Origin: an uncultured delta proteobacterium
Lineage (GTDB): Bacteria > Desulfobacterota > Binatia > UBA9968
Assembly: GCA_963760795.1 (NCBI GenBank)
Contig: CAVXEP010000010.1
Coordinates: 32,001 to 96,000 of the forward strand
DNA length: 64,000 bases
Direction of reading: 5' to 3'
This document shows positions 15,840-45,499 of the stretch, piece by piece; the first letter of the stretch is position 1; every line of letters starts with the position of its first letter. The notes beneath the pieces are model-generated. The model did no database searches. It was not told the DNA's origin and saw nothing but the letters and a program-made list of their open reading frames with translations. The translations under genes were made by a program, and so were the position numbers.

Positions 15840-17697
15840 ATGTATGGCTTTCACGGACGACTGCTCCATATCGATCTGAATTGCGGCACGAGTTCGTGGC
15901 GCGAGCTTGAGGAGTCGCGCCTGCGCGCATTCCTTGGCGGCATCGGACTAGGCACGAGCCTGCTCTACGAATTCGCGCCTGCAGGAGTCGATCCCTTTGC
16001 GCCCGCCAACCCGCTGATTTTCACCAGCGCGCCATTGGTCGGCACCGGTCTGACGACCACGGCGAAATTCGCCGTAGTGACGAAATCCCCGCTCACCGGC
16101 TTTATCGCCGACTCGCTGTCGTCGAGCCACTTCGCCCTCGAGCTCAAGCGCGTCGGTCTCGACGCTCTGGTGATCACCGGCCAGGCATCGTCGATGGTGT
16201 ACATCTTGATCCAAAATGACAGAGTCGAGATTAGACAAGCTGAAAACCTGAGAGGACACAGCCCGAGCGAAACCGAAACCATGATTCGCTCGGAGCTGAG
16301 CTCTCAGTCAATGCGCGTGGCGGCCATCGGTAAAGCCGGCGAGAACCTCGTGCGCTTCGCCACCATCAGCAACGAAGGGCGTCACGCCGGGCGCGGCGGG
16401 GTCGGCGCGGTGATGGGGTCGAAGAATCTCAAAGCCATCGCTCTGTGCGGCGACCGCGAGATTTCGGTGGCCGATCCAAGCGGCGTTGAGGCAATCGCCG
16501 GCTCCCTGCGCCGCCAGAGTCTTGGCTCGCTCACCGACAAGTACCGAAATATCGGCACCGTGGCCAACCTGGCGGTATTCAACCGGCTGGGAACTTTGCC
16601 GACGCGCAATTTCCAGCAGTCGACCTTTGACCACGCTGAGGCGTTGAGCGGGGAAACTCTCACCGTCAACAACTTCAGCCGCCGGCATGGCTGCGCATCC
16701 TGCACGATCCAATGTGAGCGGCTGTTCAAAGCTCTCAACGGCGAGGAGCAGCGGCTCGAATACGAAACTTTATTCGCGCTCGGGCCGCTCTGTGGCATCA
16801 AAGATCCGCAGGCGGTGCTCCACGCCGCGCAGCTCTGCGACCAATATGGCATGGACACCATCAGCACCGGCGGCACCCTCGCCTGGGCGATGGAGTGCAG
16901 CGAGAGAGGATTGTTGCCCGAAGCGGCAGAGCTCGACCTGCGCTTCGGTCAATGCGACGCTCTTTTCGCCGCCATCGGTGCTATCGCTGAGCGCCAAGGC
17001 ATCGGTGCTTTACTCGCCGAAGGCTCGCGCCGCGCCGCCATCGAAACCGGTCCAGATACTCAGTGTTGGGCGATGCATGTCAAAGGCTTGGAGCTTCCGG
17101 GCTATGAACCGCGCAGCTTGAAAACCATGGCTCTGGGTCTCGCGGTTAGCCCGCGCGGCGCCTGCCACAATCGCTCCGGCGCCTACGAGGCCGACTTTTC
17201 CGGCGATGTCGATCGTCTGCGATCCGACCCCGGCAGAGGCTCCCTTGTCGCCGCCTCCGAGGATTTCGCCGCCGTGCTCGATTCGCTGATCGTCTGTAAA
17301 TTCCTGCGCAAGTGCTTCAGCGACTTTTACCGCGAAGGCGCCGAACTGCTCAGCAAAGTCACCGGCTGGGATTGTTCCAGCGACGAGCTCAAACGCATCG
17401 GCGAACGCATTCATAACTTGAAAAAACTCTTCAATCAGCGCGAGGGCTGGCGCGCCGAAGACGACTGGCTGCCGGAGCGGCTGCTGCAGCGAAACCCTTC
17501 CCACCGGCGTCGCCCAGGGCGTGGGCCTAAGCGCCAACGATCTCCGCGAGATGATTGGCGGCTATTACCAAGCAAGGGGCTGGGATGAGAATGGGTTTAT
17601 TCCTCAGAGCAAGCTAAGGGAGCTAGGAATTGAAGCTCCGGATTCGAGTCTCGGGTTTCGGGTTGTCAACCCGAAACTCCGGAACTCGAATCTCTAA
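15840..17697 (+). CDS. aor: Canonical tungsten aldehyde:ferredoxin oxidoreductase (AOR); frameshift near 17487
   Basis: KSPLTG, AGRGGVGAVMGSKNLKAI, CASCTIQC, LEYET, CDQYGMDTIS, GACH and DSLIVC motifs; C-terminus YYQARGWDENGFIP in the shifted frame ends at TAA 17697. Confidence 0.92.
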
Positions 17698-18091: not shown

Positions 18092-18991
18092 ATGAACGAA
18101 TTCTTAAATACGAAGGAAGTGGCGAAGTACATCGGGATCAATGAGAAGAAGGTCTATTTCATGGCCAAGGCCGGCAAGCTCCCATGTACGCGGGTCACCG
18201 GAAAGTGGGTTTTCCCTAAGCGGCTGATCGATGAATGGATCGAGGAAAATAGCCGGGGTATCACCAGCAGCAAAAAAACGGAGCAAAGAGAATTTCTTCT
18301 CGCGGCGGGCAGCGATGACCCGAGCCTCGGGATTCTGCGCGAACTCTACGCGGCTCGCAAGACATCTGCATCGATCTTTTTCGCGACTTCCGGAAGCAGC
18401 GGCGGATTGGCCGCGCTCCGAGACGGCGTCGCGGACTTCGCCCTATCTCATCTGCTCGATCCTGAAACCGGCGAGTACAATCTCCCCTTCGTCCGCACAA
18501 CGATTTCCTCAGGTGTCGCGCTCGTCCCGTTATTCCACCGTGAACTCGGCCTATTGCTCGGAGCGGGAAATCCTCTCGGTCTGCGAACGCTTGCCGACCT
18601 TGGACGGACCGGCGTCCGGATGATCAACCGGCAAGCAGGCTCTGGAACGCGCCACTACACGGACCAACAATTTTCCAAACTCGGCATCGACACGAAAAGC
18701 ATCAAGGGATACGACATGGCCGTCGCCACCCACCTCGAAGTCGGGTTGAAAATTCTCCGCGCAGAGGCCGACGTCGGAATCGCCTCGGGTACGGCCGCTC
18801 AGCTGCTCGGCCTCGACTTCATTCCTCTCACCCGGGAGCGATTCGATATCGTGATCCCCAAAGCGCGCTTCTTCTCTCCGGGCATTCAGGTCTTGCTCGA
18901 GATCGTCGGATCGCGCGATTTCCGCAGCCGCGTGGAAGCGTTGGGCGGCTATGACACCTCTGACTCCGGCCGGATGATCGCGTCAAGTTAA
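18092..18991 (+). CDS. TunR/TaoR-type tungstate/molybdate-responsive regulator (HTH_17 plus PBP-like domain)
   Basis: N-terminal FLNTKEVAKY...LPCTRVTGKW; PBP motifs GSDDP, NRQAGSGTR, THLEVG; directly upstream of tupABC. Confidence 0.88.
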   Translation: MNEFLNTKEVAKYIGINEKKVYFMAKAGKLPCTRVTGKWVFPKRLIDEWIEENSRGITSSKKTEQREFLLAAGSDDPSLGILRELYAARKTSASIFFATSGSSGGLAALRDGVADFALSHLLDPETGEYNLPFVRTTISSGVALVPLFHRELGLLLGAGNPLGLRTLADLGRTGVRMINRQAGSGTRHYTDQQFSKLGIDTKSIKGYDMAVATHLEVGLKILRAEADVGIASGTAAQLLGLDFIPLTRERFDIVIPKARFFSPGIQVLLEIVGSRDFRSRVEALGGYDTSDSGRMIASS

Positions 18992-19006
18992 ATCGAGGAA
19001 GTGGTT

Positions 19007-19864
19007 ATGCAAAATAAATCTTATTTCCCGACCTTGCTCGCTGTCCTGGCTTTGGTTCTGGCGGTCCCATCGCATCTTCCCGCCGGAGAAGCGGCCAGCA
19101 AAAACCTCATCCTGTCGACCACCACCAGCACCCAGGACTCGGGGCTGCTGGATGTTCTGGTGCCGCTGTTCGAGAAAAAGAGCGGCTACAGCGTAAAGAC
19201 CGTCTCGGTCGGCACCGGCCAAGCCCTCGAGTTGGCGGCCAAGGGAGAGGCAGATGTGGCGCTGGTCCATGCGCCGAGCCTGGAGAAAAAATACGTTGCC
19301 GACGGCAAGCTGCTCAATCGCCGCCTCGTCATGTACAACGACTTTATCTTGCTCGGTCCGGCGAACGATCCCGCCCAGATCAAATCGACCAAAAGCAGCG
19401 CCGAGGCGATGAAGCGGATCGCGGCGAGCGCGAACAGATTCGTCTCTCGTGGCGACAACTCCGGCACCCACAACCTTGAAAAGTCGCTTTGGAAACAGGC
19501 GGGAATTGACCCCAAGGGCGCTTGGTACATCGAGTCAGGCCAAGGAATGGGGGCGACCCTAGGCATCGCTAATGACCGGAACAGCTACACGATCACCGAC
19601 CGCGCGACCTATCTGGCCTTTCGTAAACGGGTAACTCTCGCGATCCTACTGGAAGGCGACAGGCCGCTCTTGAACATCTATTCGGTGATGGAAGTGAATC
19701 CCGCCAACGGCCCGCGAATCAACACCGCCGGGGGAAAAAACTTCGCCGATTTCATGGTCGCGCCGGAGACCCAGGCCGTGATCAAGAGCTTCGGCGTGGA
19801 AAAGTTCGGCCAGCCGCTGTTCATTCCGGTCGCGGGAATGCGCGAAGAACAGGTGGGAGAATAG
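19007..19864 (+). CDS. tupA: Tungstate ABC transporter substrate-binding protein
   Basis: Signal peptide; TTTSTQDSGL tungstate signature; GTGQAL; SRGDNSGTH. Confidence 0.95.
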   Translation: MQNKSYFPTLLAVLALVLAVPSHLPAGEAASKNLILSTTTSTQDSGLLDVLVPLFEKKSGYSVKTVSVGTGQALELAAKGEADVALVHAPSLEKKYVADGKLLNRRLVMYNDFILLGPANDPAQIKSTKSSAEAMKRIAASANRFVSRGDNSGTHNLEKSLWKQAGIDPKGAWYIESGQGMGATLGIANDRNSYTITDRATYLAFRKRVTLAILLEGDRPLLNIYSVMEVNPANGPRINTAGGKNFADFMVAPETQAVIKSFGVEKFGQPLFIPVAGMREEQVGE

Positions 19865-19865
19865 C

Positions 19866-20579
19866 GTGGAACTCGTCTGGGAAGGGATCAAGCATGCCTG
19901 CTGGCTCTTGCTCAGCCGCGATGCCGAGGTGCTCGGGATTACCCTTTTCTCGTTGCAGGTTTCCGGCGCCGCCACCGGACTATCCCTCGTCGTCGGAATT
20001 CCCCTGGGAATTTTACTCGCCATGAAGCGCTTCCCAGGCCACAGCCTCGCCGTCAGCCTGATTAATACCGGCATGGGACTCCCGCCCGTGGTCGTCGGTT
20101 TGTTCGTCACGATCTTTCTCTGGCGCAGCGGCCCGCTCGGTTATATGGAATTGCTCTACACGCCGACGGCGATGATCATCGCTCAGGTGGTGATCGCATT
20201 TCCCATCGTCGCCGGCCTGACCATGGCTGCATTCCAGAGCCTCAATCCCAATTTGCCGCTTCAGCTACTGGGAATCGGCGCATCGACCCCGCAACTCCTC
20301 TGGTTGCTCTGCAAGGAAGCCCGGCTGCCTTTGCTCGCGGCGATCATGGCCGGGTTCGGCGGAGTCATCTCCGAAGTCGGCGCATCGATGATGGTCGGCG
20401 GCAATATCCGCGGCCAGACCCGCGTACTGACGACCGCGACGGTTTTGGAAACCGGCAAAGGCAACTTTGAAATCGCCATCGCCCTCGGTTTAATTCTCCT
20501 GGTTCTCACCTTTGCGGTGAATCTTCTCCTCACCCACATTCAGCAGCGCGAGCAGATCCGATGGCCGAAGCCCTCCTAA
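19866..20579 (+). CDS. tupB: Tungstate ABC transporter permease
   Basis: MGLPPVVVGL, SEVGASMMVGGNI and TRVLTTA motifs. Confidence 0.93.
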   Translation: MELVWEGIKHACWLLLSRDAEVLGITLFSLQVSGAATGLSLVVGIPLGILLAMKRFPGHSLAVSLINTGMGLPPVVVGLFVTIFLWRSGPLGYMELLYTPTAMIIAQVVIAFPIVAGLTMAAFQSLNPNLPLQLLGIGASTPQLLWLLCKEARLPLLAAIMAGFGGVISEVGASMMVGGNIRGQTRVLTTATVLETGKGNFEIAIALGLILLVLTFAVNLLLTHIQQREQIRWPKPS

Positions 20580-21652
20580 CTCTTCGCGACATCCTGGTCC
20601 GCTACGGCCCGTCCACCATCCTTGAATTTTCTTCGCTGGCCATTCACGCCGGTGAAAATCTCGCCGTCATCGGACCCAATGGCGCGGGAAAATCGACGCT
20701 GCTCCGCCTGATGGGACAACTGCAGCAGCCGACCCAGGGCAAGATCTACTTTCATGACCGCGAAGTAATCCCATCCGATGGCCTCGCGATCCGGCGCCGC
20801 ATGGCGAGCGTATTTCAGGAGCCGCTGCTGTTAAATGCCTCGGTCTATGACAACGCGGCGTTGGGCCTAAGACTGCGCGGTTTGGACCGCCGCTCCATCG
20901 AACGGCGGGTTCAACCCTGGCTCGAGCGGCTTGGCATCGGCCATCTTATGCGCCGCCGGGCTCGAAGCCTTTCCGGCGGCGAGGCCCAGCGCACCAGCTT
21001 GGCTCGCGCCCTGGCGCTCGACCCCGAGATCCTCTTTTTAGACGAACCCTTTTCTCCCCTCGACCCGCCCACGCACGAGGGCCTGCTGCTTGATCTGGAG
21101 CGCATACTGCGCGAAACGGGTATCACCACCGTGTTCGTCACCCACGATCGTGATGAGGCTTTCATGTTCGGCGACCGAATTGCGGTGCTCATAGGCGGCA
21201 AGCTGCTCCAGACCGGGCCGACGACGGAAGTCTTTGCTCATCCGGAAAACCTGGAGGTCGCTCACTTCGTCGGGTTCGACACCAAAATCCCTGGAGTCGT
21301 GGAGAGCGCGAGCGAACATTCGGCCCAAGTCCGCTTTAACGGCGGCTATGCGCAGGTGGTCGGTAATTTTCAAGCCGGCGAGCAGCTGTTTCTTTGCCTT
21401 CGACCGGAGGATATCACTGTGAGTCTGCCGGGAGTGGAGGGCGCCAAATCGAGCGCGTGTAACCAGCTTCAGGGCAAGGCGCTGAAAGTCACTCCCTGGG
21501 GCGCTCACTACCGGATGGTGGCCGCATGCGGGGAAAACCGTCTCGTCGCCTTTATCACCAGACCGTCATTCCTCGGACTTAAGATCGCAGAGGGAGACGA
21601 GATCGTTGCGTCGTTCAAAGCATCAGCGGTTCACGTGATTAAACGAAAATGA
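20561..21652 (+). CDS. tupC: Tungstate ABC transporter ATPase with TOBE domain
   Basis: GPNGAGKST, LSGGE, LDEPF and VTHD motifs; C-terminal FKASAVH. Confidence 0.92.
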   Translation: MAEALLTLRDILVRYGPSTILEFSSLAIHAGENLAVIGPNGAGKSTLLRLMGQLQQPTQGKIYFHDREVIPSDGLAIRRRMASVFQEPLLLNASVYDNAALGLRLRGLDRRSIERRVQPWLERLGIGHLMRRRARSLSGGEAQRTSLARALALDPEILFLDEPFSPLDPPTHEGLLLDLERILRETGITTVFVTHDRDEAFMFGDRIAVLIGGKLLQTGPTTEVFAHPENLEVAHFVGFDTKIPGVVESASEHSAQVRFNGGYAQVVGNFQAGEQLFLCLRPEDITVSLPGVEGAKSSACNQLQGKALKVTPWGAHYRMVAACGENRLVAFITRPSFLGLKIAEGDEIVASFKASAVHVIKRK

Positions 21653-30181: not shown

Positions 30182-30182
30182 A

Positions 30183-32234: not shown

Positions 32235-32353
32235 CGCGAAGCGCGCGATTACAAATTCCAGATTACAAATTCCAGATACCGGAGTTCGCATTCAATCTGT
32301 AATTTGGAATCTGTAATCTGGAATTTTCAACCTAAAACTGTGAAAGGACATTT

Positions 32354-34394: not shown

Positions 34395-34469
34395 TCAATC
34401 GTCTAAGAAGTAAATCCACTCGGTCCTTTTTCAAAGCGGGAAGTGATAATCGCAGGAGGCAATACGAAG

Positions 34470-36356
34470 ATGAGTCTATTTCCAACCCAGCGCACCACTC
34501 CCCTCCCCGGCGGCTATATGGGCAAGATTCTCCGCGTCGATCTGACCACCGGCAAACTAACGGACGAGAATTTGCCCGAAGAGCCGATCTTGAAAAAATT
34601 CATCGGCGGCCAGGCGCTGGCGCTGTATATTTTGATGAACGAATTGCCGCTCGACGCCACGCCCTTCGGCCCGGAAAGCAAAGTGGTCATGATGACCGGC
34701 CCGCTCACCGGCAACGGCTTCACGCCGGGCGGCACGAAGATGACCGCGGTCTATCTGAGTCCGCTCACCAACACGACCCTCGGCCGCGGCGCCACCAGCG
34801 GCTATTGGGCGACCTATCTCAAAGCCGCCGGCTACGATGGCGTGATCGTCGAAGGCGTGTCAGCGAAACCGGTCTATCTCTACGTCAAAGACGGCAAGGC
34901 GGAATTGCGCGACGCGGCGAAAGTCTGGGGTCTCGGCACCCGCGACACCGAAGACCGCCTGCGCGAGATCGTCGGCAACCGCGACGCCAGAGTGCTGTGC
35001 ATCGGCCCCGCCGGAGAAAACCTGAACCGCGGCGCCATGCTCGCCAACGATTACAATCATTTCGCCGCCCATAGCGGCGGCGCCGTGCTCGGCTCGAAAA
35101 AACTCAAAGCGATCGTCGTCAGCGGCACCGTGCGGCCAAGCCATCGCGACAAGGCCAAACTCGCCGACGCCGGCTTGCGCTGGCGCAATGTCCTGCAACA
35201 ACACGACGTCAAGAAGAAGAAAACCAAGTACGGCCACGGCGACGCCTGGGGCGCGCTGAATAATTTGAACTGGCGCAGCACCGACATTCAACCGGCGCAT
35301 ATCGCCGGCTTCGCCGACAATGACGTCGTCCTCCGTCCCTGCTTTCAGTGCGCCCGCATGTGTCCCTGGGACGCCAAGTTGGGCGAGGGCGAATTCAAAG
35401 GCACGGTGGTTCACTTCAACGCCGGCGGCGAGTGGCTCGATACTTTTTTCAATCTCGGCATCAAAGGCAACGCCGTGCTCTATCTCGCCGAGAAGATCAA
35501 CAATCTCGGCATCGAGTGCAGCCACTTTTCCTGCGGCGCCGGAGTAGCGTTCGAAGCGTGGGAGAAAGGCCTGCTCGGTCCGGAGCGCACCAATGGCGTA
35601 AAACTCGAATGGGGCAACGTCGAGGCAGTTAGTAAATTGCTCGACATGGCGGCCCACCGCGAAGGCTGGCTCGGCAACTTGCTCGCCGAAGGGCCGAAGC
35701 AATTGGCCGAAGCGCTCGGCGGCGACGCGCCCAACTGGGCGGTCCACACCAAAGGCGGCACGCCGGCCATGCACGAGTGGCGCCCGCTGCTCGGTCAAAT
35801 GTTGCGCGAACTGGTCGCCAGCGGCGGCATGAAGCCGCAAGGCGGCGGTTCGAAGAATCCGCCGCCGGATCTGCGCGACAATGAACATTGGGGTCCGCTG
35901 GAAATGGATAGCCCGGAAGGCTGGGTCTGGTCCCATGTTCTTTCCGAACAGTACCGGCAATTCACCGGCATCTTCGGCGGCTGTTGGTTCGCCCAGGAGA
36001 GCCACAAAAAAGACGGCTTGAATTCCATCGTCGACGCCTTCAACGCCATCACCGGCTGGAATTTTTCCATGGACGAAGCGTTACAAGCCGGCCACCGCAG
36101 CATGATCCTGCAAAGCCTGTTCGGCACCCAGCGCGGCTGGATCGCCGACTTCGACTGGCAAGACGTCGGCCCGAGATTTTTAGAACCGATCCCCGACGGC
36201 AAATACAAAGGCTTCACCATCGCCAAATGGCTGCCGGAAATGATCTGGGACTACTACAAACAATCCGGCCGGCACGAGCGCACCGGCAGGCCGTTCAAGG
36301 ACACGCTGGAGAAACTGGGATTGGAAGAATTCGCCGAGTGGAGCCAGCTTGATTAA
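34470..36356 (+). CDS. Divergent AOR/WOR-family oxidoreductase, paralog A
   Basis: GYMGKILRVDL, SPLT, LKAAGYDG, IGPAGENL, GAVLGSKKLKAI, CFQCARMC, LLAEG and HTKG motifs. Confidence 0.88.
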   Translation: MSLFPTQRTTPLPGGYMGKILRVDLTTGKLTDENLPEEPILKKFIGGQALALYILMNELPLDATPFGPESKVVMMTGPLTGNGFTPGGTKMTAVYLSPLTNTTLGRGATSGYWATYLKAAGYDGVIVEGVSAKPVYLYVKDGKAELRDAAKVWGLGTRDTEDRLREIVGNRDARVLCIGPAGENLNRGAMLANDYNHFAAHSGGAVLGSKKLKAIVVSGTVRPSHRDKAKLADAGLRWRNVLQQHDVKKKKTKYGHGDAWGALNNLNWRSTDIQPAHIAGFADNDVVLRPCFQCARMCPWDAKLGEGEFKGTVVHFNAGGEWLDTFFNLGIKGNAVLYLAEKINNLGIECSHFSCGAGVAFEAWEKGLLGPERTNGVKLEWGNVEAVSKLLDMAAHREGWLGNLLAEGPKQLAEALGGDAPNWAVHTKGGTPAMHEWRPLLGQMLRELVASGGMKPQGGGSKNPPPDLRDNEHWGPLEMDSPEGWVWSHVLSEQYRQFTGIFGGCWFAQESHKKDGLNSIVDAFNAITGWNFSMDEALQAGHRSMILQSLFGTQRGWIADFDWQDVGPRFLEPIPDGKYKGFTIAKWLPEMIWDYYKQSGRHERTGRPFKDTLEKLGLEEFAEWSQLD

Positions 36357-36430
36357 TGTCTCGCTCGGGGATGATTGAAATCCTCCGCTCCTTCGATGTA
36401 GCTCCGGCCATGCTTCCGGCGAAGCAACCA

Positions 36431-36516
36431 TCCGTCATACCGGCGAAAGCCGGTATCCATCTTCCTTTGGTTTGGCGCCAAAAAACCTGCATTCCGGCAT
36501 CCGCCGGAATGACGGA
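36431..36516. repeat. RPE-like palindromic element (GTCATNCCGGCG...CGCCGGAATGAC)
   Basis: Long inverted repeat with internal hairpins; translates as VIPAKAGI / WIPAFAGMT; lies between convergent genes. Confidence 0.75.
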
Positions 36517-36590
36517 AGGGAAGTTGACTCCCAGTCGACAAATTCACAACCTCTCGGATTAAAGCCGAGGGTCGTTCAGTTATGTGTAAC

Positions 36591-37331
36591 CTAAAATGCC
36601 CTTACGGCAACTCCTCCAACAAGCCGGCTCGCCCCCTTCAATGGGTTCTTGATCTTCAACAGTTTCTGCACATACCAAACCCGCGCGGCGACCGGATGAA
36701 CTACCGGCACGCCAATGTCGTTTTCCGCTGCGACGATGTCTTTCACGCCCCAAGCCCCGGAGCCGAGCAGGTAAATTCCCTGCGCCGTCGGATGTTTGTT
36801 GAATGACGCTTTGAGATGCTGGTAAATCGTCTCGTTAGAAATTCCATCCGCTTCGCTGGGCGAGGTGTCCATGCCTTCCATGCCTAACACTTCGAATCCG
36901 GCGTCGGTGAAGTACCGTGTGAAGACATCGTTCATCTTCTGATCGCGGAAATAAGTGCAGCCGACAAACTTCTTGATCCCTAAAGCGCGCAGCGCTTGGG
37001 CCTGCGACATGCCTGACGTGAAGATCGGCACTTTATATTTGGCCTCCCAAGCACTGACGATCTCCTGCTCCGCCTGATGGCCGCGCACCATGAACGGCGG
37101 CCCGCCCTCGGGATGCATGAGATCGACGCCGATTTCCGCCAACTCCGCTACCTTGGCGTGATAATTTTCCATGGCGCCGAGATAGCCGCGTTCCGAATGT
37201 TCCTTGATGCCGGCGTACATTGGAATGCAGCCGACCCCTTCCGGCAGGAGTCGAATAAATTCCACCAACGATCCCGAGCCATAGGTCGGTTTCACCACAC
37301 CGACAATTCCTCGCCATGTTCCAGAAGCCAT
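36591..37331 (-). CDS. Asp/Glu racemase-fold protein (maleate isomerase/arylmalonate decarboxylase-like)
   Basis: GIVGVVKP, LLPEGV, ALRALGIKK, YFTDAGFEV and DIGVPVVH motifs; probable indel in the last codons. Confidence 0.8.
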   Translation of the reverse strand: MASGTWRGIVGVVKPTYGSGSLVEFIRLLPEGVGCIPMYAGIKEHSERGYLGAMENYHAKVAELAEIGVDLMHPEGGPPFMVRGHQAEQEIVSAWEAKYKVPIFTSGMSQAQALRALGIKKFVGCTYFRDQKMNDVFTRYFTDAGFEVLGMEGMDTSPSEADGISNETIYQHLKASFNKHPTAQGIYLLGSGAWGVKDIVAAENDIGVPVVHPVAARVWYVQKLLKIKNPLKGASRLVGGVAVRAF

Positions 37332-37536
37332 GTGTTATCTCCCTTCTCATTAAAATCGAAGATGAACGGCATGCTAGTCGGGACACACAACAAAAAACAA
37401 GAGCCATCTGCGCACGAGCATCATCCATTCTCCATTCTCGACCATCGATCCTCGACTCCAATGCATAGCCATTCAGTTGACGGCGCCAAAAGGTAAGTGA
37501 TACACACACGCTGAAAGTAAGCGCGAAAGGATCAGC

Positions 37537-38343
37537 ATGGCGAACCAACCGACGGACACTCTCACTCAAGAATACGGCAATCTCGTGCCCACAGGCCGGC
37601 TGCTCGATGGCAAGCCGCGCAGTATCTTATTCGACGCCACCAAATGCATCGGCTGCCGCCACTGCGTGCAAGCGTGCAAAGATTGGAACGACCACGACCG
37701 CACCAGTGCCTACGAACTCTCCAGCACCAACTGGATTACCATGGAACCGCCGGTGCTCGAGGGGTTGTCGCCGATCTGGGCGCGAAATAGCTGCATGCAC
37801 TGCGATTTCGCCGCCTGCGCCGCCGTGTGCCCGGTCGAGGCGATTACCAAATACGAAGAAGGGCCGGTGGTCATCAACAAAGATGTCTGCATCGGCTGTG
37901 AATACTGCATCCACGCCTGTCCCTGGGAAGTGATTACCAAGAACGAGATCACCGGCAAGGCCAGCAAGTGCACCATGTGCAGCGACCGCATCAGCGAGGA
38001 CAAGCAACCTTTCTGCGTCCAGGCCTGCCCAGTGAACGCTCTAGATTTCGGCTTCACCGAGGAGATTGCCGACAAAGCCAAGAAGCAGGCCGAAGCGGTC
38101 GGCGGTTACACCTACGGCGACAAAGAAGCCGGCGGCGGCAGCGTCGTCTATGTCTTGAAGGAAAGTAAAGACAAATACGGCGTGCGCGATATCGCCGCCG
38201 GCAGATTTCCCAAGCATAAGATCCCACTCGGTTTGATGTTAAAGGACCTGTTCACGCCGCGCTGCGGCATCGCCGGCAAAATGCGCGCTCTCTGGCTCGC
38301 GATTATTCACCCGAAGCGGCTGCTCTATCGGTATTTCTCTTAA
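37537..38343 (+). CDS. 4x[4Fe-4S] electron-transfer subunit (FdnH/DmsB-like)
   Basis: CIGCRHCVQAC, CMHC...CAAVCP, CIGCEYCIHACP, CTMC...CVQACP. Confidence 0.9.
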   Translation: MANQPTDTLTQEYGNLVPTGRLLDGKPRSILFDATKCIGCRHCVQACKDWNDHDRTSAYELSSTNWITMEPPVLEGLSPIWARNSCMHCDFAACAAVCPVEAITKYEEGPVVINKDVCIGCEYCIHACPWEVITKNEITGKASKCTMCSDRISEDKQPFCVQACPVNALDFGFTEEIADKAKKQAEAVGGYTYGDKEAGGGSVVYVLKESKDKYGVRDIAAGRFPKHKIPLGLMLKDLFTPRCGIAGKMRALWLAIIHPKRLLYRYFS

Positions 38344-38362
38344 CGTCGATTTCAGCTGCGCA

Positions 38363-39430
38363 ATGACACCTCAAAGCGACCGACTCCTTGGTTCGTCAAT
38401 CCCGCGTAGACGGGAATCAAGACCTAGCTCCGAGGGAATCTTAGGTTGTTCCGTCTCGGCAATTTTCGTCGCGGCAATCACGCTCTCGCCGCCCACCATC
38501 GCCCACGCCGAAAAAATTCGCACCGCAATTCCTCAGGCGAATCTAAACTATCTATCCATTCACGTCGCCGACGCCCGCGGCTTTTTCAAAGACGAAGGCT
38601 TGGAGAACGAAACCGTGGTCATCTCCGGTCCCCTCGCCACCGCCGCATTGCTTAGCGGCGACGTCGATTTTAGCGGCGGTGGCGGCAGCGGCATGCGCGC
38701 CGCACTCAAGGGCGCGCCGGTGAAGGGCATCTATTTTCAGACCGAGAAGGTCACCTTCTACCTGGTCGCGGACCCGAGCATCAGAACCGCTGCCGATTTG
38801 AAGGGCAAAAGAATCGCCGTCGGCAGCCCCGGCGACACCCAGGATCGCATGATGACCATGTTCGCCGAGCGCGGCGGCGTGGCGTCGCGCGAGATGATTC
38901 GCATCTCCATGGGCTCGGATACCAATACTCGGATCACCGCGATCAAAACCGGCGCGGCGCACGCCGCCATCGTCGATCCCGGCGGCCTGGTCTTCGCGCA
39001 AAAAGAAGGCCTCGTGTCGTTGGGTTTCCTCGGCGACTTGTTTCCCATGCCCTTCCAGGGCTTCGTCACCACTGATCGCAAGTTGCGCGACAATCCAGCG
39101 CAAGTGAAACGCTGGCTGCGCGCCGCCATACGGGCCTTGATGTTCGTGCGCGACCGGCCTGAAGAGGCCGTCGATTTGGGCATGAAGAAGCTGCAACTGG
39201 GCCGAGCCTCGAAAGCGATGATCGTCGAAGGCACGAAGAACTACGTGCGCGCCCTGCCGCAAGGCGTGCCAGGTATGCCATCGGCCGAAGGGATCAAAAA
39301 CTTTCTCGAATACGATATTAAGATCCCCCTCGGCTTCAAAGAAGATATTGCGCCGGAACGGCTGCTGCACTTACAGCTGGTCAACGAAGTCAAAGAGGAT
39401 CTGGAAACGGCACAAAGGAGAAACAAGTAG
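38363..39430 (+). CDS. NMT1/SsuA-like substrate-binding protein
   Basis: GFFKDEGLE, ALLSGDVDF and DLKGKRIAV motifs; start uncertain. Confidence 0.85.
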   Translation: MTPQSDRLLGSSIPRRRESRPSSEGILGCSVSAIFVAAITLSPPTIAHAEKIRTAIPQANLNYLSIHVADARGFFKDEGLENETVVISGPLATAALLSGDVDFSGGGGSGMRAALKGAPVKGIYFQTEKVTFYLVADPSIRTAADLKGKRIAVGSPGDTQDRMMTMFAERGGVASREMIRISMGSDTNTRITAIKTGAAHAAIVDPGGLVFAQKEGLVSLGFLGDLFPMPFQGFVTTDRKLRDNPAQVKRWLRAAIRALMFVRDRPEEAVDLGMKKLQLGRASKAMIVEGTKNYVRALPQGVPGMPSAEGIKNFLEYDIKIPLGFKEDIAPERLLHLQLVNEVKEDLETAQRRNK

Positions 39431-40159
39431 ATGGCATCGGAACAGCAACTACGCGAGCAGCTCGCGACTTGTACGAGAATATTCGCCATGCAGGGGCTCA
39501 TCGGCCTGTTCGGCCATGTTAGCGTGTTTCAGCCGGAGACTAAGACTATCTTCGTCACTCCCGGTTCGGGCTCGGACAAGGCGAACTTCACGGCATCGGA
39601 CATGATCCCCATCGATCTGAGCGGCAAGCCGACTACCGGGACGATTCCGCCGCCAGTGGAGTGGCCGATTCACACGGCACTCCATGGGGCGCGCGCGGAT
39701 GCGCTCGCCGTCGCTCATCTGCACACGCCCTACGCGACACTGTTCGCCATCGCCAAGCGCGAGTTTCACCCGGTGACGCTGCAAGGCACGGTCTTCGGCG
39801 AAGGCGTGCCGCTCTACAAGGAAGCCCATCTGGTCACCACGCCGCAGCGCGGCGACGCCATGCTGAAAACCATCGGTAACCACCGCGCCCTGCTCATGCG
39901 CGGCCACGGCATCGTCGTCGCCGGCAAGAGTTTGGCGGAAGTCATGTTTGCGTCGTTGATCCTGGAAGACGACGCCAAGAAAACCATGCAAGCCGCAGCG
40001 CTCGGTTCGGTGCAACATTTCACTGCCGATGAGTGCAAAACTTTCAACGCCGAGATCGACTTCGAGCGCCGCGCCAACCGGGCTTGGGAATTCTTTTCGC
40101 GCATCGAATCGCAGTGGGATCATCAAGGCGGCACCGGGAAAATTGAATTGTTCCCGTGA
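39431..40159 (+). CDS. Class II aldolase/adducin-family protein
   Basis: FGHVS, VEWPIH, HLH and MRGHG motifs. Confidence 0.9.
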   Translation: MASEQQLREQLATCTRIFAMQGLIGLFGHVSVFQPETKTIFVTPGSGSDKANFTASDMIPIDLSGKPTTGTIPPPVEWPIHTALHGARADALAVAHLHTPYATLFAIAKREFHPVTLQGTVFGEGVPLYKEAHLVTTPQRGDAMLKTIGNHRALLMRGHGIVVAGKSLAEVMFASLILEDDAKKTMQAAALGSVQHFTADECKTFNAEIDFERRANRAWEFFSRIESQWDHQGGTGKIELFP

Positions 40160-40169
40160 GAATGGCAAC

Positions 40170-40259
40170 GTTCCAATTGGTTCCACGTGTTCCAGTCGTT
40201 CCAATCGTAATCGGATTCCGAACCCTTGGAACTATTGGAACGGTTGGAACCACTGGAAC
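40170..40259. repeat. Inverted array of 9-mer repeats, (GTTCCANNN)x4...(NNYTGGAAC)x4
   Basis: Read directly; forms a long imperfect hairpin. Confidence 0.85.
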
Positions 40260-40272
40260 CTAGGAGGAAGAT

Positions 40273-41329
40273 ATGAGCGAAGGCGTACGACTATACGCAG
40301 GCACCCAACATGGCTTAATCACCTGGAAGTCGACCAATTCAGGCTGGCAGGAAGTGGCGCGTCATTTCGAAGATGGCATCATCGACTCGATCCACGGCTG
40401 CAAGCAGTCGCCGGAGACCGTCTTCGTCGGGGTCACTCATGACGGGCTCTATCGCACGACCAATGGCGGCAAGAGCTGGGTGAAAGTATTCGAAGGCGAT
40501 ATCCGCTCGGTCACCGTCGATGCCAGCGACGACAAAGTCGTCTACACCGGCATCGAGCCGGTGGGGCTGTTTCGCAGCGAAGACGGCGGCGATAGTTGGC
40601 AAGAAATCACCGCGTTGAAAAAGCTGCCGCAGTCGGTGCGCAAGAACTGGTGGTATCCGCAAGCGCCGCACCATGGCCATGTGCGCAACATTCATATTCA
40701 CCCCGACGATCCGCAAACGATTTATTTATGCCTCGAACATGGCGGCATCGTCCGCAGCTTCGATCGCGGCGCCACCTGGGAAGATGTCAGCAAAGGCATC
40801 GACTATCTCGACATTCATGTGATCGCCAACTTTCCCAAACGTAACGACCGCTACTACGTCGCCAGCGCGCGGGGGTTCTTCACCAGCGAAAAGCCGGAAG
40901 CCGGTTGGACTCGCGCTGAAAACGGCATGACCCGCGACTATTTCCACGACTTTCTATTTCTTAATCCGCAGGGCAACGATGAGCCAGCGACCATGCTCAT
41001 CGGCGCCGCCGACGCCTCACCGGGCTTCTGGCGCCGAGAAAATCGCGGTGCAAGAGCGGCGATCTTCAAAAGCACCGATGGCGCGGAATCTTGGACCCGC
41101 GTTACCAACGGCCTCGCCGAAGAACTCGACTCCATGGTCTGGGCATTGGTGCATCACCCGACCGATCATAAGTCGGTTTTCGCCGGTTTCGGCAATGTCG
41201 CCCGCGGCCACGCGTCAGGTGCCGGGCGGCGCCGGCGATCTGATGATCAGCCGCGACCAGGGCGACAGCTGGGAGCGATTGGATATCGAACTGCCGGCGG
41301 ATCGAGTACTGTGGGCGGCGGCGGAATAG
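40273..41329 (+). CDS. BNR/Asp-box beta-propeller protein (YCF48/sialidase-like; frameshift near 41225)
   Basis: Asp boxes TTNGGKSW, SEDGGDSW, SFDRGATW, STDGAESW and SRDQGDSW; no signal peptide. Confidence 0.85.
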
Positions 41330-41347
41330 CGAACGCTGCGCGTTCGC

Positions 41348-41461
41348 GTTCCATGCGTTCCAGGGTTCCAAAAGTTCCAGTCGTTTCAGGGATTGGGAAC
41401 AACGAAACGTCAATGAATCCTGACCAATTGGAACATCTGGAACCGCTGGAACTACTGGAAC
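41348..41461. repeat. Second inverted 9-mer GTTCCA/TGGAAC array
   Basis: GTTCCA x4 plus GTTTCA on the left arm and TGGAAC x4 on the right arm. Confidence 0.85.
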
Positions 41462-41486
41462 AGATCTAACGTATCGAGGCACAAGG

Positions 41487-43394
41487 ATGGCGAATTCCGA
41501 ATACTCAAACTTTTTCCCGGCGAAACGCAAAACCCGTTTGCCCGGCGGCTACATGGGGAAACTGCTGCGCGTCGATATGACGACGGGGAAACTCACCGAC
41601 ATCAATCTTCCCGAAGAACCGCTGTTAAGAAAATATTGGGGCGGCCAACTCTTCGCCGAATATGTCCTGCTCAACGAACTGCCCCTCGGCATCGATCCCT
41701 ACGATGCCCGCAACGTCATCGTCGGCATGACTGGTCCAATCACCGGCACTGGGTTCACTCCCGGCGGCACCAAGATGTGTTTCGTCTATTTGAGCCCGGC
41801 GACCAAGTACACCCTCGGCCGCGGCGCCACCAGCGGCTATTTTGGCACGTCGTTAAAATGCGCCGGCTATGACGGCATCATCGTCACCGGCGCGGCGCAG
41901 ACGCCCAAGTATCTTTACATCGGCGAAGACAAAGTCGAGTTGCGCGATGCGAGCAAGGTCTGGGGCAAGGGCATCCGCGAGACAGAAGACACCCTGCGCA
42001 AAGAATCCGGCCATCAGGATGCGCGCGTCGGCGCCATTGGTCCCGCCGGTGAAAACCTGGTGCGCGCGGCGATGCTGGTCAACGACTACAATCACACCGC
42101 GGCGCACGGGTTGGGCGCGGTGATGGGCTCGAAGAAACTGAAAGCCTTGGTCGCCTGGGGCACCAAGCGGCCGCGCTTGCATGACAAAAACAGATTGATC
42201 GACGCCGGCGTGCGCTGGTCCAAAACGATCGCGTCGCGCAAGACCACCGTGAAGAAGCGGCTCACCAGCGTCGGCCATGGCGAGGACTGGGGCGCGATTA
42301 CCAAGTTGAACTGGCGCAGCACGATCATCACCGACGAAGCCAAAGGCCTCGATCAGAATCGCGTCACGCTCCGTCCCTGCTTTCAATGCCCGCGCATGTG
42401 CCCGTGGGATGTCGAGATCGGCGAAGGCCGCTTCAAAGGCAAGATCGGCCACTTCAACGCCGGCAGCGAGTGGATGGACACGTTTTACAACTTGGGTTTC
42501 AAGGGCAACGACGTGCTTTATCTCTCCGAGCGCATCAACGACCTTGGCATCGAGTGCAGCCACTTCGCCTGCGGCGCGGGGCTCGCTTTCGAAGCCTGGG
42601 AGAAAGGCGTGCTCGGCGCCGACAAGACCGACGGTTTGAAGTTGGAATGGGGCAACATGGAAGCGGTCGAGACCTTGCTCGAGCGCTGCGCCCGGCGCGA
42701 GACCTGGCTCGGCAATATTCTCGCCGACGGCCCCAAAGAGCTGGCCGAAGAGCTAGGCGGCGAAGCGAAGAACTGGGTGGTGCACACCAAAGGCGGCACT
42801 CCGGCGCAGCATGAGTGGCGCCCGATGCTGAGCCAAATGCTGCGCGAACTGGTCGCCAGCGGCGGCATGAAACCTCAAGGCGCCGGTGGCACCGAACCGC
42901 CCGCCGATCTCAAGTATCGCGAAAAATGGGGTCCACTCGATCCCAATCAACCGGACGGTTGGACCAGCTCGCATTTAATTACCGAGCAGGTTCGCCAAGC
43001 TTGCGGCATCATGGGCGCTTGCTGGTTTGCATTAAACGACAAGCCGCGCGACGGGGTGCAAAGCATGCTCGACGCGCTCAACGCGACCACCGGTTGGAAC
43101 GTCAGTTTGGACGAACTCGTCGATGCCGGCCACCGCGCGATTATTTTACAGAGCGTCTTCGGCACCCAGCGCGGCTGGATCGCCGAGCATGACTGGCAAG
43201 ATGTCGGCCCGCGATTTTTGGAACCGATCCCCGACGGCAAGTACAAAGGCTTCACCATCGCCAAGTGGCTGCCGGAGTTAGTTTACGAATATTACAAAAT
43301 CTCCGGCCGCCACGAACACACCGGCCGGCCGTTCGTGGACACGCTGCAAAAGTTGGGGCTCGAAGAGTTTAAAGAGTGGAGCCAACTCGATTAA
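41487..43394 (+). CDS. Divergent AOR/WOR-family oxidoreductase, paralog B
   Basis: Colinear with paralog A; GAVMGSKKLKA, CFQCPRMC and GACWF motifs; identical C-terminus EWSQLD. Confidence 0.88.
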   Translation: MANSEYSNFFPAKRKTRLPGGYMGKLLRVDMTTGKLTDINLPEEPLLRKYWGGQLFAEYVLLNELPLGIDPYDARNVIVGMTGPITGTGFTPGGTKMCFVYLSPATKYTLGRGATSGYFGTSLKCAGYDGIIVTGAAQTPKYLYIGEDKVELRDASKVWGKGIRETEDTLRKESGHQDARVGAIGPAGENLVRAAMLVNDYNHTAAHGLGAVMGSKKLKALVAWGTKRPRLHDKNRLIDAGVRWSKTIASRKTTVKKRLTSVGHGEDWGAITKLNWRSTIITDEAKGLDQNRVTLRPCFQCPRMCPWDVEIGEGRFKGKIGHFNAGSEWMDTFYNLGFKGNDVLYLSERINDLGIECSHFACGAGLAFEAWEKGVLGADKTDGLKLEWGNMEAVETLLERCARRETWLGNILADGPKELAEELGGEAKNWVVHTKGGTPAQHEWRPMLSQMLRELVASGGMKPQGAGGTEPPADLKYREKWGPLDPNQPDGWTSSHLITEQVRQACGIMGACWFALNDKPRDGVQSMLDALNATTGWNVSLDELVDAGHRAIILQSVFGTQRGWIAEHDWQDVGPRFLEPIPDGKYKGFTIAKWLPELVYEYYKISGRHEHTGRPFVDTLQKLGLEEFKEWSQLD

Positions 43395-43415
43395 GCCGAT
43401 CCACGAGGAGACAAA

Positions 43416-44405
43416 ATGCGAGCGGTTAAATTTTCAACTCTAATGTTGCTCTTATTATTTTTTGCCGCAGCCCTGGAGCCGTACGCGCATGCGCAGACAT
43501 TGAAAAAAGTCCGCATGGCGAGCTCGTCGACCAACGTCTCGTTCCTCGCTCTCTACACCGCGCTCCATCGCGGCTTTTTCAAGGACGAAGGCATCGACCT
43601 GGAAATCATTTTTATGCCGGCCAACCTAGCCAGCACGGCGGTTTTGAACGGCGACGTCGACTTCAACGGCGCCGTCACTGGCACCATCGGCGCCGCAGTC
43701 CAAGGCCGGCCGATGAAAGTCTTGCTCTTCACCGTATCGAAACCATTGCTGTTCTTGATGGGCCAGAAAAACATTAAGGACTTGAAGCAGCTCAAAGGCA
43801 AGAAAATCGCCGGCAGTTCGCCCGGCGGCTCGGCGACGCTACTCGCCAATCAGGCGCTCAAACAAATCGGACTGGAGCCCGGCAAGGACGTTTCGGTCCT
43901 GCAAATGTCCGGCAACGCCGCGAGCCGACTCGCCGTATTGGAATCCGGGGTCGTCGAGGCATCGCTGATATCCGTGCCGGAAAACATCATCGCCCAAGAA
44001 AAGGGTTATAACGAATTACTTTTTCTCGGCGACGTCATCGAATTTCCCCAGAACGGCTTCGGAACTTCGGACAAACGCATCCGCGAAAACCCTGACGAAG
44101 TTTACCGCATGGTACGCGCCACGTTGCGCGGCCTGCAATTCGTCTGGGATAAAAACAACCAGGAAGCGGTCACCAACATTCTGATGAAACAATGGAAAGT
44201 AAACGACCGCAAGATGGCCGCGGAAATGTCGCGCCAAGTCGGACGCGTGCTAACCAAAGACGCCTACGTCAAACCCGAGTCGGTGCAAGTGCTCATCGAC
44301 CTCGCCCGCGACAGCGCGAAGGTCACCAAGCCGGTTACCGTCGCTGAAGTCGTCGACTACAGTTTCTTGGACAAGGCGAGAAAAGAATTGGGAATCGGGA
44401 AATAA
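43416..44405 (+). CDS. NMT1/SsuA-like substrate-binding protein
   Basis: Signal peptide AHA; GFFKDEGIDLE, LKGKKIAGSS and VDYSFL motifs. Confidence 0.87.
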   Translation: MRAVKFSTLMLLLLFFAAALEPYAHAQTLKKVRMASSSTNVSFLALYTALHRGFFKDEGIDLEIIFMPANLASTAVLNGDVDFNGAVTGTIGAAVQGRPMKVLLFTVSKPLLFLMGQKNIKDLKQLKGKKIAGSSPGGSATLLANQALKQIGLEPGKDVSVLQMSGNAASRLAVLESGVVEASLISVPENIIAQEKGYNELLFLGDVIEFPQNGFGTSDKRIRENPDEVYRMVRATLRGLQFVWDKNNQEAVTNILMKQWKVNDRKMAAEMSRQVGRVLTKDAYVKPESVQVLIDLARDSAKVTKPVTVAEVVDYSFLDKARKELGIGK

Positions 44406-45460: not shown

Positions 45461-45499
45461 GTTCATTGTCTGTGGTATAAGTTGCAACGGCGCTTCTTG

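Follow-up and report, generated by a model that had tools for sequence, protein, structure and literature searches.

Two AOR/WOR-type genes flank a polyferredoxin gene

We analysed a 64,000-nucleotide stretch of DNA (the window) from an uncultured delta proteobacterium of the Binatia (lineage UBA9968; GenBank assembly GCA_963760795.1, contig CAVXEP010000010.1, positions 32,001 to 96,000 of the forward strand). The window carries genes for two paralogous proteins of the aldehyde:ferredoxin oxidoreductase (AOR)/WOR family, here termed AOR1 and AOR2, and, between them, a gene for a polyferredoxin. An initial annotation had pointed to departures from canonical AOR motifs common to both paralogs and had proposed an undescribed clade of tungsten enzymes. 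The three genes are as follows (positions in the window).

34470..36356, plus strand: AOR1, WorL-type catalytic subunit, paralog 1 (AFOR_N and AFOR_C domains; inside the clade described below)
37537..38343, plus strand: WorS-type polyferredoxin of 268 aa, four [4Fe-4S] clusters predicted (Fer4_11 and other Fer4 families)
41487..43394, plus strand: AOR2, WorL-type catalytic subunit, paralog 2, 635 aa (AFOR_N and AFOR_C domains)

Both catalytic-subunit genes are intact and encode full-length proteins, as the initial annotation had it. The AOR1 reading frame is open from a GTG at 34443 to 36356 on the plus strand, which would give 637 aa; the start is likely the ATG at 34470 that was annotated originally, because the homologue P0115 (628 aa) opens with an identical MSLFPTQR. 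The two proteins are 67% identical across 629 residues, and in each the Pfam domains AFOR_N (E 4e-63 and 1e-59) and AFOR_C (E 2e-48 and 2e-50) together cover the whole protein. An AlphaFold2 model of AOR2 (mean predicted local distance difference test score, pLDDT, 93.2; predicted template-modelling score 0.93) retrieved nine Foldseek matches at E<=0.001, all of them AOR/WOR chains (TM 0.79-0.88, identity 23-29%), and superposes onto Pyrococcus furiosus AOR (PfAOR, 1aor), the comparison suggested at the outset, at TM 0.84/0.88. AOR1 and AOR2 thus have both AFOR domains and, as judged from the AOR2 model, the three-domain AOR fold that define AOR/WOR membership.

Inspection of the iron-sulfur site gives the same picture. 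Both paralogs contain CFQC(A/P)RMCPW and G(G/A)CWF. All 76 members of the clade defined below have the four [4Fe-4S] ligands (Cys298, 301, 305 and 512), and 128 of the 129 other family members compared share the distal cluster Cys. The AOR scaffold and its cluster cysteines are therefore kept, in agreement with the first description of the locus.

The paralogs belong to a monophyletic, strongly constrained clade

Of 8000 candidates scored in a word-indexed search, 7238 proteins reached E<=1e-30; the best 120 of the 90%-identity clusters listed are 67-95% identical to AOR2, and the relatives listed are named just 'aldehyde:ferredoxin oxidoreductase', 'AOR N-terminal domain-containing protein' or 'hypothetical'. 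Contigs from one genome per species contributed 73 loci with 82 stretches that code for relatives 60-97% identical to AOR2, and at least 13 of these loci hold two full-length copies, as the window does. A third clade copy lies on another contig of the same genome (G000:C2, L079:9257-11263, minus strand). Every one of the 73 locus records is titled as a metagenome-assembled genome (MAG), under the names delta proteobacterium/Syntrophobacter(aceae), Candidatus Binatia, Chloroflexota, Rokubacteria, Udaeobacter and alpha-/betaproteobacteria. From the 73 loci and this genome we extracted 81 copies, of which 76 are non-redundant and full length; residue counts for the clade refer to these 76.

In an exhaustive HMMER scan of 50%-identity representatives, the clade has a single full-length cluster representative (70% identical), the other hits (53-89% identical) being fragments 155 to 413 aa long. 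Full-length proteins then follow at 43, 41, 39 and 37% identity, with ordinary AORs at 30-36%. The ESM Atlas yielded generic AOR clusters only. A FastTree phylogeny of 156 rows (22 clade members, 132 full-length representatives, the canonical AOR of the window and Escherichia coli YdhV as outgroup) recovers the 22 clade rows as a single branch with support 100, on a stem of 0.57 changes per site and with internal branches mostly of 0.03-0.3; the clade is nested within successive uncharacterised sisters (P0125; P0127 with P0129; P0133) and a 36-row group. A quick IQ-TREE run on 51 rows gave the same result (SH-aLRT 100, stem 0.54). Placement in a WOR-family phylogeny, which the initial annotation had recommended, accordingly yields a monophyletic clade with support 100 in two trees, GAPOR having been compared by model score.

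Within the clade, 153 of the 635 positions of AOR2 are invariant, and a clade-specific extension of about 20 residues, FPxxRxTxLPGG (AOR2 residues 8-22), precedes the usual AOR start. The long stem and very short internal branches fit a functional change followed by constraint, not drift. The proposal that the shared motif changes are under selection is borne out by these branch lengths together with the near-invariance of the motifs in the 76 homologues, and it is because of this near-invariance, found in members from 73 MAG loci as well as this genome, that we discount chance or decay.

Eight positions in the active-site region are distinctive

Relative to the canonical AOR encoded at 15840 in the window, the paralogs have AAHSG/AAHGL in place of HAGRGG, NAG(G/S)EW in place of LEYET, N(N/D)LGIEC in place of DQYGMD, PA(M/Q)HEWR in place of PGYEPR, SGGMKPQ in place of PRGACH and G(I)(F/M)G(G/A)C in place of DSLIVC; each change originally quoted as common to both proteins is present in the sequences. 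Distinctiveness was judged against 129 other family representatives, whose alignment has 135 columns with conservation of 70% or more. In 105 of these columns, which include the GSKxLKA and IGPAGE stretches and Arg445, the clade consensus matches the family residue; in the other 30 it differs. The positions around the active site, in PfAOR numbering, compare as follows.

Asp338: Asn in the clade; Asn 68, Asp 47 in the 129 others; ordinary variant
Arg182: His in the clade; His 46, Arg 53 in the others; ordinary variant
Tyr427: His (His442 of AOR2) in 76/76; His 73 (commonest), Tyr 21 in the others; ordinary variant
Arg76: Lys in the clade; Lys 16 in the others, including the canonical AOR of the window; ordinary variant
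Arg186: His in 76/76; Arg 98 in the others; distinctive
Thr243: His in 67/76, Tyr in 7, Phe in 2; Thr 98, Ser 12 in the others; distinctive
Glu311: Gly in 76/76; Glu 104 in the others; distinctive
Tyr312: Ser/Gly/Ala in 76/76; Tyr 92 in the others; distinctive
Asp343: Glu in 76/76; Asp 117 in the others; distinctive
Thr344: Cys in 76/76; distinctive
His448: Pro in 73/76, with an invariant Lys just before it; His 97 in the others; distinctive (MAFFT and HMMER agree)
Asp489: Gly (Gly507 of AOR2) in 75/76; Asp/Asn/Glu 119 in the others; distinctive

The characterisation of these motifs as rewritten, which had been made against a single canonical copy, thus stands for eight positions, whereas four of the changes are frequent variants in the family. 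The surrounding motifs are equally constrained: both His residues of NDYNHxAAH are present in 75-76 of the 76 members, the Glu of G(S/G/A)EW and the IEC of N(D/N)xGIEC in all, and H(E/D)WR, SGGMK(P/G/S)Q and CWFA barely vary. The four nearest sisters also have the Glu311/Tyr312 changes and have lost the family residues at Thr243 and His448, and three of the four have Arg186 replaced by His; these common changes are therefore older than the clade.

Chan et al. 1995 reportedly recognised two pterin-binding motifs of the form DxxGL(C/D)x, and their structure is said to give Arg76, Arg182, Asp338 and Asp489 pterin or phosphate roles. In the clade, the first of these motifs reads N-(D/N)-x-G-I-E-C and the second G-x-x-G-x-C, the Asp of the latter being lost in 75 of 76 members. 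The Asn that opens the first motif would be compatible with the family pattern, since 68 of the 129 other representatives have Asn there. The catalytic Glu and His motifs had both been described as changed; His448 is indeed lost, but an invariant Glu (Glu328, 76/76) sits at or beside the position of Glu313. In MAFFT alignments that include the sisters, Glu328 occupies the Glu313 position itself, and this 'GGxE' Glu lies at the canonical spacing to the next NLG, so that the equivalent of Glu313 is probably retained.

PMC12096430 describes roles for Thr243, Glu313, Tyr427, His448, Glu311, Tyr312 and the Mg ligands, and names Thr243, Glu313, Tyr427 and His448 as the second-shell set conserved in aldehyde-oxidising members. 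At the three positions that mark an aldehyde-oxidising AOR sensu stricto (Thr243, with Ser tolerated, Tyr427 and His448), the clade has other residues. This bears on the simplest alternative, that AOR1 and AOR2 are ordinary broad-spectrum aldehyde:ferredoxin oxidoreductases, active in aldehyde detoxification or oxidation like other Class II WORs, in which the motif changes are neutral drift. Such a reading can draw on the Glu kept at or near Glu313, on the four changes that are frequent in the family, on PfAOR being the nearest solved relative, and on the replacement of Tyr427 by His, which PMC12096430 reports in the AOR of Clostridium formicoaceticum and in WOR5/ASOR and which is thus tolerated. 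It has to accommodate, however, the loss of three of the four second-shell residues (Thr243, Tyr427 and His448), the additional loss of Glu311 and Tyr312, and branch lengths that speak for functional change and constraint, and we consider it unlikely.

A predicted four-cluster polyferredoxin is the conserved neighbour and probable partner

The 268-aa protein encoded between the paralogs resembles the four-cluster ferredoxin subunits HmcB, DmsB and FdnH, all below NCBIfam cut-offs. Its 16 Cys, in four ferredoxin-type groups, are invariant in 29 homologues, and a C-terminal extension of about 75 aa that ends in RLxYRY is conserved; no Tat or Sec signal was seen in its N-terminus, read directly. 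Sixty-three of the 80 clade copies in the 73 loci have a WorS-like gene no more than 6 kb away, always on the same strand; for copies with 1.5 kb or more of sequence on each side, the figure is 45 of 52. In 19 copies the two genes are separated by at most 150 bp, and worS is upstream in some subgroups and downstream in others. It is the sole neighbour common to the most distant clade members, whose other neighbours vary (TctC/SBP_bac_5 binding proteins, luciferase-like monooxygenase, thiamine pyrophosphate (TPP) enzymes, isochorismatase). The suggestion that the FdnH-like protein is a plausible partner is supported by its being the one conserved neighbour. The FPxxRxTxLPGG stretch of WorL and the C-terminal tail of WorS (residues 194-268) may be contact elements between the subunits. 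Separately, an apparent 921-aa WorL-WorS fusion in locus L054 was rejected as an artefact of greedy open-reading-frame picking in GC-rich DNA; Pfam shows only Fer4 domains in that frame.

This gene layout, with a small subunit of four [4Fe-4S] clusters adjacent to the catalytic one, is that of a Class II WOR, which PMC13328260 (Putumbaka et al. 2026) defines as WorL plus WorS with four [4Fe-4S]. There, Class II enzymes make up 16% of the family and occur in 40 of 92 clades, ASOR and GOR being the only characterised members given; just five of the 92 clades are assigned a known role, so that one more uncharacterised clade is unsurprising. The names of the MAGs that we tried are absent from three supplements of PMC13328260, and among the literature matches listed for AOR terms with Binatia, Rokubacteria or Syntrophobacter there is no paper on the clade. 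As to the proposal of an undescribed clade, it holds in that the group falls in none of the characterised groups compared, whereas its large- and small-subunit layout is already published. What is new here is a selected, uncharacterised clade with a conserved four-cluster partner; the Class II architecture and part of the residue variation were known.

Tungsten genes and the probable cofactor

Genes for tungsten uptake and cofactor insertion lie 13-23 kb upstream of the paralogs, close to the 15-20 kb first estimated. They comprise the following.

11515-13446, minus strand: MoeA-PBP fusion (NF011068, 751 bits against a cut-off of 534)
13496-14674, minus strand: MoeA
14853-15836, plus strand: MobA-like protein
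15840..17631, plus strand: canonical AOR, the comparator of the initial annotation, its C-terminus out of frame from about 17488
18092..21652, plus strand: HTH-PBP regulator-like gene and genes for a TupA/TupB/TupC-like tungstate ATP-binding cassette transporter (Tup part 19001-21652)

The TupA model is the sole NCBIfam hit for the tup genes (222 bits against a cut-off of 400). Elsewhere, genes of this kind are linked directly to members of the clade. In L042 (264-4846), tupB and tupC run straight into worS-worL on the same strand, and in L050 (4335-9896) tupABC is divergent from worS-worL at a distance of 183 bp; a moeA-PBP and moeA pair lies just upstream of worS in L018 and L062 and within about 4 kb in L051 and L071. 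No canonical AOR is present in these six of the 73 loci, and the linkage therefore argues for a tungsten- or molybdenum-pterin (W/Mo-pterin) cofactor. Retention of such a cofactor by the clade is probable on these grounds, and His at the positions of Arg182 and Tyr427 is also found in WOR5/ASOR, a solved W-bis-pterin enzyme.

The same observations bear on the idea that these proteins are cofactor-less, non-redox derivatives, in which an AOR body with its Fe-S cluster has lost the metal-pterin and serves in electron transfer or as a scaffold. Loss of the Asp of the second pterin motif, the change of two Arg to His and the lower confidence with which the rewritten loops are modelled would be expected of such proteins. 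Yet they are full length, they keep 105 of the 135 family-conserved columns, and the changed positions are themselves invariant; moreover, tup or moeA is tied to clade genes in six loci without another AOR, and solved WOR5 binds the cofactor despite Asn or His variants at Asp338, Arg182 and Tyr427. We therefore hold a cofactor-less derivative to be very improbable.

Relation to characterised enzymes

The closest solved sequence is that of PfAOR (E 6e-64 with a single sequence, 2e-105 with a profile), followed by two bacterial AORs, WOR5, FOR, AorB, WOR83 and BamB; the sisters P0125, P0133 and P0142 are no nearer to any solved enzyme. PfAOR and the structures 9g7j, 9mqx and 8c0z (AorB) share with the clade the three-domain fold, the four [4Fe-4S] Cys, the motifs of the N-terminal domain and a Glu at or near Glu313. 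The clade differs from these AORs, to which it is 27-29% identical, in the replacement of Thr243, Glu311, Tyr312, His448, Arg186, Asp343 and Asp489 and in its conserved N-terminal extension of about 20 residues. WOR5/ASOR resembles the clade in having a large subunit and an adjacent four-cluster polyferredoxin without an export signal, in His at the Arg182 and Tyr427 positions and in the lack of Thr243 (the absent Thr and the Tyr-to-His change of ASOR are also mentioned in PMC12096430). It is 27% identical and not a sister, and it differs in the His448 region, at Asp489 and at Asp343; the WorS of the clade, in turn, is 261-278 aa long with a conserved C-terminal tail ending RLxYRY. Archaeal GAPOR, which according to PMC12096430 likewise lacks the conserved Tyr/His second-shell region, is monomeric, whereas the clade has a WorS partner gene; the GAPOR model NF040818 gives the paralogs 25.5 and 22.8 bits against a cut-off of 1300.

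BamB and YdhV (the E. coli enzyme being a Class V WOR, clade 41) invite a closer comparison, as family members that pair with polyferredoxins, are not aldehyde oxidoreductases and, according to PMC12096430, have Cys322 (BamB) and Cys336 (YdhV) as metal ligands and are without most AOR second-shell residues. That AOR1 and AOR2 might be enzymes of this type, with a protein Cys on the metal and reductive, for example dearomatising, chemistry, would be consistent with their own loss of second-shell residues, with the new invariant Cys357 and with neighbouring genes that resemble aromatic or heteroaromatic acid decarboxylases. Opposite Cys336 of E. coli K-12 YdhV, however, the alignment puts Trp329 of AOR2, a residue that all clade members share, so that there is no Cys at the metal-ligand position. 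The BamB match is limited to the N-terminal domain (phmmer) or extends to residue 433 (profile), the YdhV model NF007354 gives 185 and 189 bits against a cut-off of 868, in the N-terminal domain only, and in neither tree is any row more distant than YdhV. Identity to the two enzymes is 23-24%. The traits of Class V WORs were not seen either, the N-termini of WorS and both WorL having no twin-arginine or hydrophobic signal and the operon no membrane or cytochrome subunits; nor does the locus contain BamC-I-like genes. A BamB/YdhV-type enzyme is, on this evidence, the most improbable of the alternatives considered.

The clade thus lies outside the characterised groups, as first supposed, for those compared here: solved AOR, FOR, WOR5/ASOR, AorB, BamB, WOR83 and two bacterial AORs, and GAPOR and YdhV by model; the set leaves out WOR4, bacterial GOR and BmWOR.

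A working model for the WorL-WorS enzyme

Taken together, these data lead us to view AOR1 and AOR2 as WorL catalytic subunits of an uncharacterised, strongly constrained AOR/WOR clade, for which our working model is a W/Mo-pterin enzyme, docked to WorS, that does not act on generic aldehydes; we put the probability of this reading at roughly 60%. A single [4Fe-4S] cluster and a bis-pyranopterin with tungsten (or molybdenum) would sit in each WorL, which would dock in the cytoplasm onto the 268-aa WorS, whose four [4Fe-4S] clusters could wire the active site to a ferredoxin-like or other carrier. The metal pocket appears rebuilt by the changes Thr243 to His, Glu311 to Gly, Tyr312 to Ser, Tyr427 to His and His448 to Pro with its neighbouring invariant Lys, and the first pterin motif seems to gain a new invariant Cys and Glu. 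Because the pocket around the metal is rebuilt, the substrate is probably not a generic aldehyde.

Several observations weigh against this model. The equivalence of Glu328 with Glu313 depends on the aligner, HMMER placing Glu328 two residues off Glu313 of 1aor and one off the Glu of WOR5. Residues that we take to be pterin or phosphate contacts are altered (Asp489 to Gly, Arg186 to His, Asp343 to Glu), and the lost Asp489, with the two Arg-to-His changes, would count against retention of the cofactor. Confidence in the AOR2 model is lowest in the two rewritten loops (block pLDDT 74 at 201-210; 78 and 75 at 451-470). The tup and moeA genes of the window need not serve the clade, because they flank a canonical AOR and a formate dehydrogenase. 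As regards the partner, seven well-flanked copies have no WorS nearby (L028, L040, L044, L055, L058, L067, L069), and the genome has a single worS for three WorL paralogs. The third of these (L079:9257-11263, minus strand) has no WorS gene in its vicinity.

Neighbouring genes and the possible substrate

The genes around the three already described are the following.

36591..37331, minus strand: Asp/Glu-racemase-superfamily protein, arylmalonate decarboxylase/maleate-isomerase-like (Pfam Amdase, E 2e-15), between AOR1 and worS
38363..39430, plus strand: NMT1/SsuA-like solute-binding protein with hydrophobic N-terminal signal or anchor (Pfam NMT1, E 7e-19; SsuA_fam 66 bits against 163)
39431..40159, plus strand: class II aldolase/adducin-fold protein, nearest to the decarboxylases of that fold (Aldolase_II, E 5e-35); in 46 of 73 loci
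40273..41469, plus strand: BNR/Ycf48-like beta-propeller protein (Pfam Sortilin-Vps10, PSII_BNR); in 33 of 73 loci
43416..44405, plus strand: NMT1/SsuA-like periplasmic solute-binding protein with Sec-type signal peptide (NMT1, E 3e-25; SsuA_fam 78 bits against 163)

The six genes from 37537 to 44405 look like one operon, since the intergenic gaps in this interval are 0-113 bp. Clustering of neighbours over all 73 loci gave no further ones beyond those known, apart from antisense open reading frames. The racemase-superfamily protein is present in 20 of the 73 loci and scores 57 bits against a cut-off of 225 with the NCBIfam arylmalonate decarboxylase model. The aldolase-fold protein gives 88 bits against a cut-off of 200 with the 3,4-dihydroxyphthalate decarboxylase model; among solved structures it matches best (E 7e-23) to 2z7b (Mlr6791), presumably a hydroxymethylpyridine-dicarboxylate decarboxylase. 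Both binding proteins of the operon have export signals and are weakly SsuA-like, PhnS-like proteins being encoded further upstream; the solved relatives of the protein at 43416-44405 are distant only.

More likely than a generic aldehyde, in our model, would be a small anionic organic substrate, imported through the neighbouring binding proteins and processed with the decarboxylase-type neighbours. The neighbours would suit a pathway that breaks down imported organic acids (perhaps aromatic or heteroaromatic ones) or, as for ASOR, sulfonates or phosphonates, and none is specific. Beside the third paralog lie genes for hydantoinase/oxoprolinase A and B subunits (one B copy split), an Amidohydro_2 protein, a dienelactone hydrolase and two TPP enzymes; this context and the solved relatives of the solute-binding and aldolase-fold proteins suggest an aromatic or heteroaromatic acid theme, without naming a substrate.

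An ASOR-like enzyme, oxidising aliphatic sulfonates or phosphonates brought by SsuA/TauA-like and PhnS-like binding proteins, would account for several of these features at once: the shared large- and small-subunit layout, His for Tyr427 and the absent Thr (features of ASOR in PMC12096430 and PMC13328260), His at the Arg182 position as in WOR5, and flanking binding proteins whose best NCBIfam hits are SsuA_fam and the 2-aminoethylphosphonate-binding PhnS. Those hits, however, fall far under their cut-offs (53-78 bits against 163; 52-66 against 310), the solved relatives of the binding proteins are distant and of mixed ligand, and distant clade loci have TctC/SBP_bac_5 proteins instead. With WOR5 at 27% identity and not the closest solved relative, and with sulfite- or phosphate-handling genes not seen in the operon, we find this alternative improbable.

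A bolder extension of our own model, which we offer as speculation and would not expect to hold in full, is that the clade represents a third active-site type, neither the Thr/Glu/Tyr/His type of aldehyde oxidation nor the Cys-ligand type of BamB and YdhV. It would then comprise tungsten or molybdenum enzymes of soil bacteria from widely distributed lineages (Binatia, Methylomirabilota/Rokubacteria, Chloroflexota, Syntrophobacteraceae, alpha-/betaproteobacteria) carrying out non-aldehyde redox chemistry on imported anions such as aromatic or heteroaromatic carboxylates, organosulfonates or organophosphonates, with His264, His442, Lys462, Cys357 and Glu356 binding the substrate or a second metal.

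Further genes lie around the operon. Upstream of AOR1, at 29230-34340 on the plus strand, is a run of binding-protein genes (NMT1-like, NMT1_3/TAXI-like and two SBP_bac_6/PhnS-like, one apparently truncated), near which no permease or ATPase genes were seen. The opposite (minus) strand at 44435-46303 encodes a Zn-dependent alcohol dehydrogenase (threonine-dehydrogenase-like) and an LsrF-type 3-hydroxy-5-phosphonooxypentane-2,4-dione thiolase that passes its NCBIfam cut-off (412 bits against 297); in 27-28 of the 73 loci the pair stands beside the operon, and an EamA transporter gene lies further out. At the C-terminal end of the beta-propeller protein (40273-41469), some 90 residues are Arg/Gly-rich and of low complexity, unlike the rest, and may reflect a third frame error of the assembly.

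Habitat, transcription and significance

Tungsten enzymology rests mostly on thermophiles, strict anaerobes and gut microbes. Members of the present clade were seen solely in MAGs of soil and groundwater bacteria, and DNA near-identical to that of the locus (25-55% of sampled words) occurs in 14 DNA runs of eight studies from soil, bog and mine drainage, one of which may be the source sample. Contigs from RNA libraries (four runs, three studies) match pieces of worS, both solute-binding-protein genes, the aldolase-fold gene, the BNR gene and AOR2, examples being a contig of 412 nt with two differences and one of 157 nt with none. Such contigs show neither strand, level nor operon structure, and the parts left uncovered carry no meaning; because DNA can be present in these libraries, we take them as a mere hint of transcription.

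The clade stands out as abundant in soil metagenomes, very strongly conserved, present in up to three copies per genome and linked in some genomes to tungstate uptake genes. The observation that opened this study is confirmed and its interpretation partly supported. Should the clade prove to be a tungsten enzyme with a new class of substrate, tungsten biology would reach common soil lineages, and the locus would offer a defined target for expression and assay; should it be merely another aldehyde oxidoreductase, the result would still be a useful correction of annotation, NCBI naming these proteins after their N-terminal domain alone.

Other features of the window

In the canonical AOR gene at 15840, AFOR_C positions 341-385 are encoded in another frame, which gives the usual ...YYxxRGWDxxGxP...LGI ending; either the gene is frameshifted or the assembly has an indel near 17485-17500. 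A formate dehydrogenase alpha subunit at 21860-24737 (plus strand) is likewise split over two open reading frames in different frames, the second of which contains an in-frame stop in ...ENQARI*HSSSVPGLG..., which we take to be the selenocysteine site of FdnG-type enzymes. The gene probably has both a selenocysteine codon and a frame change near 22200. It is followed by genes for an FdnH-NrfD fusion (25218-26654) and an FdhE-like protein (27527-28045).

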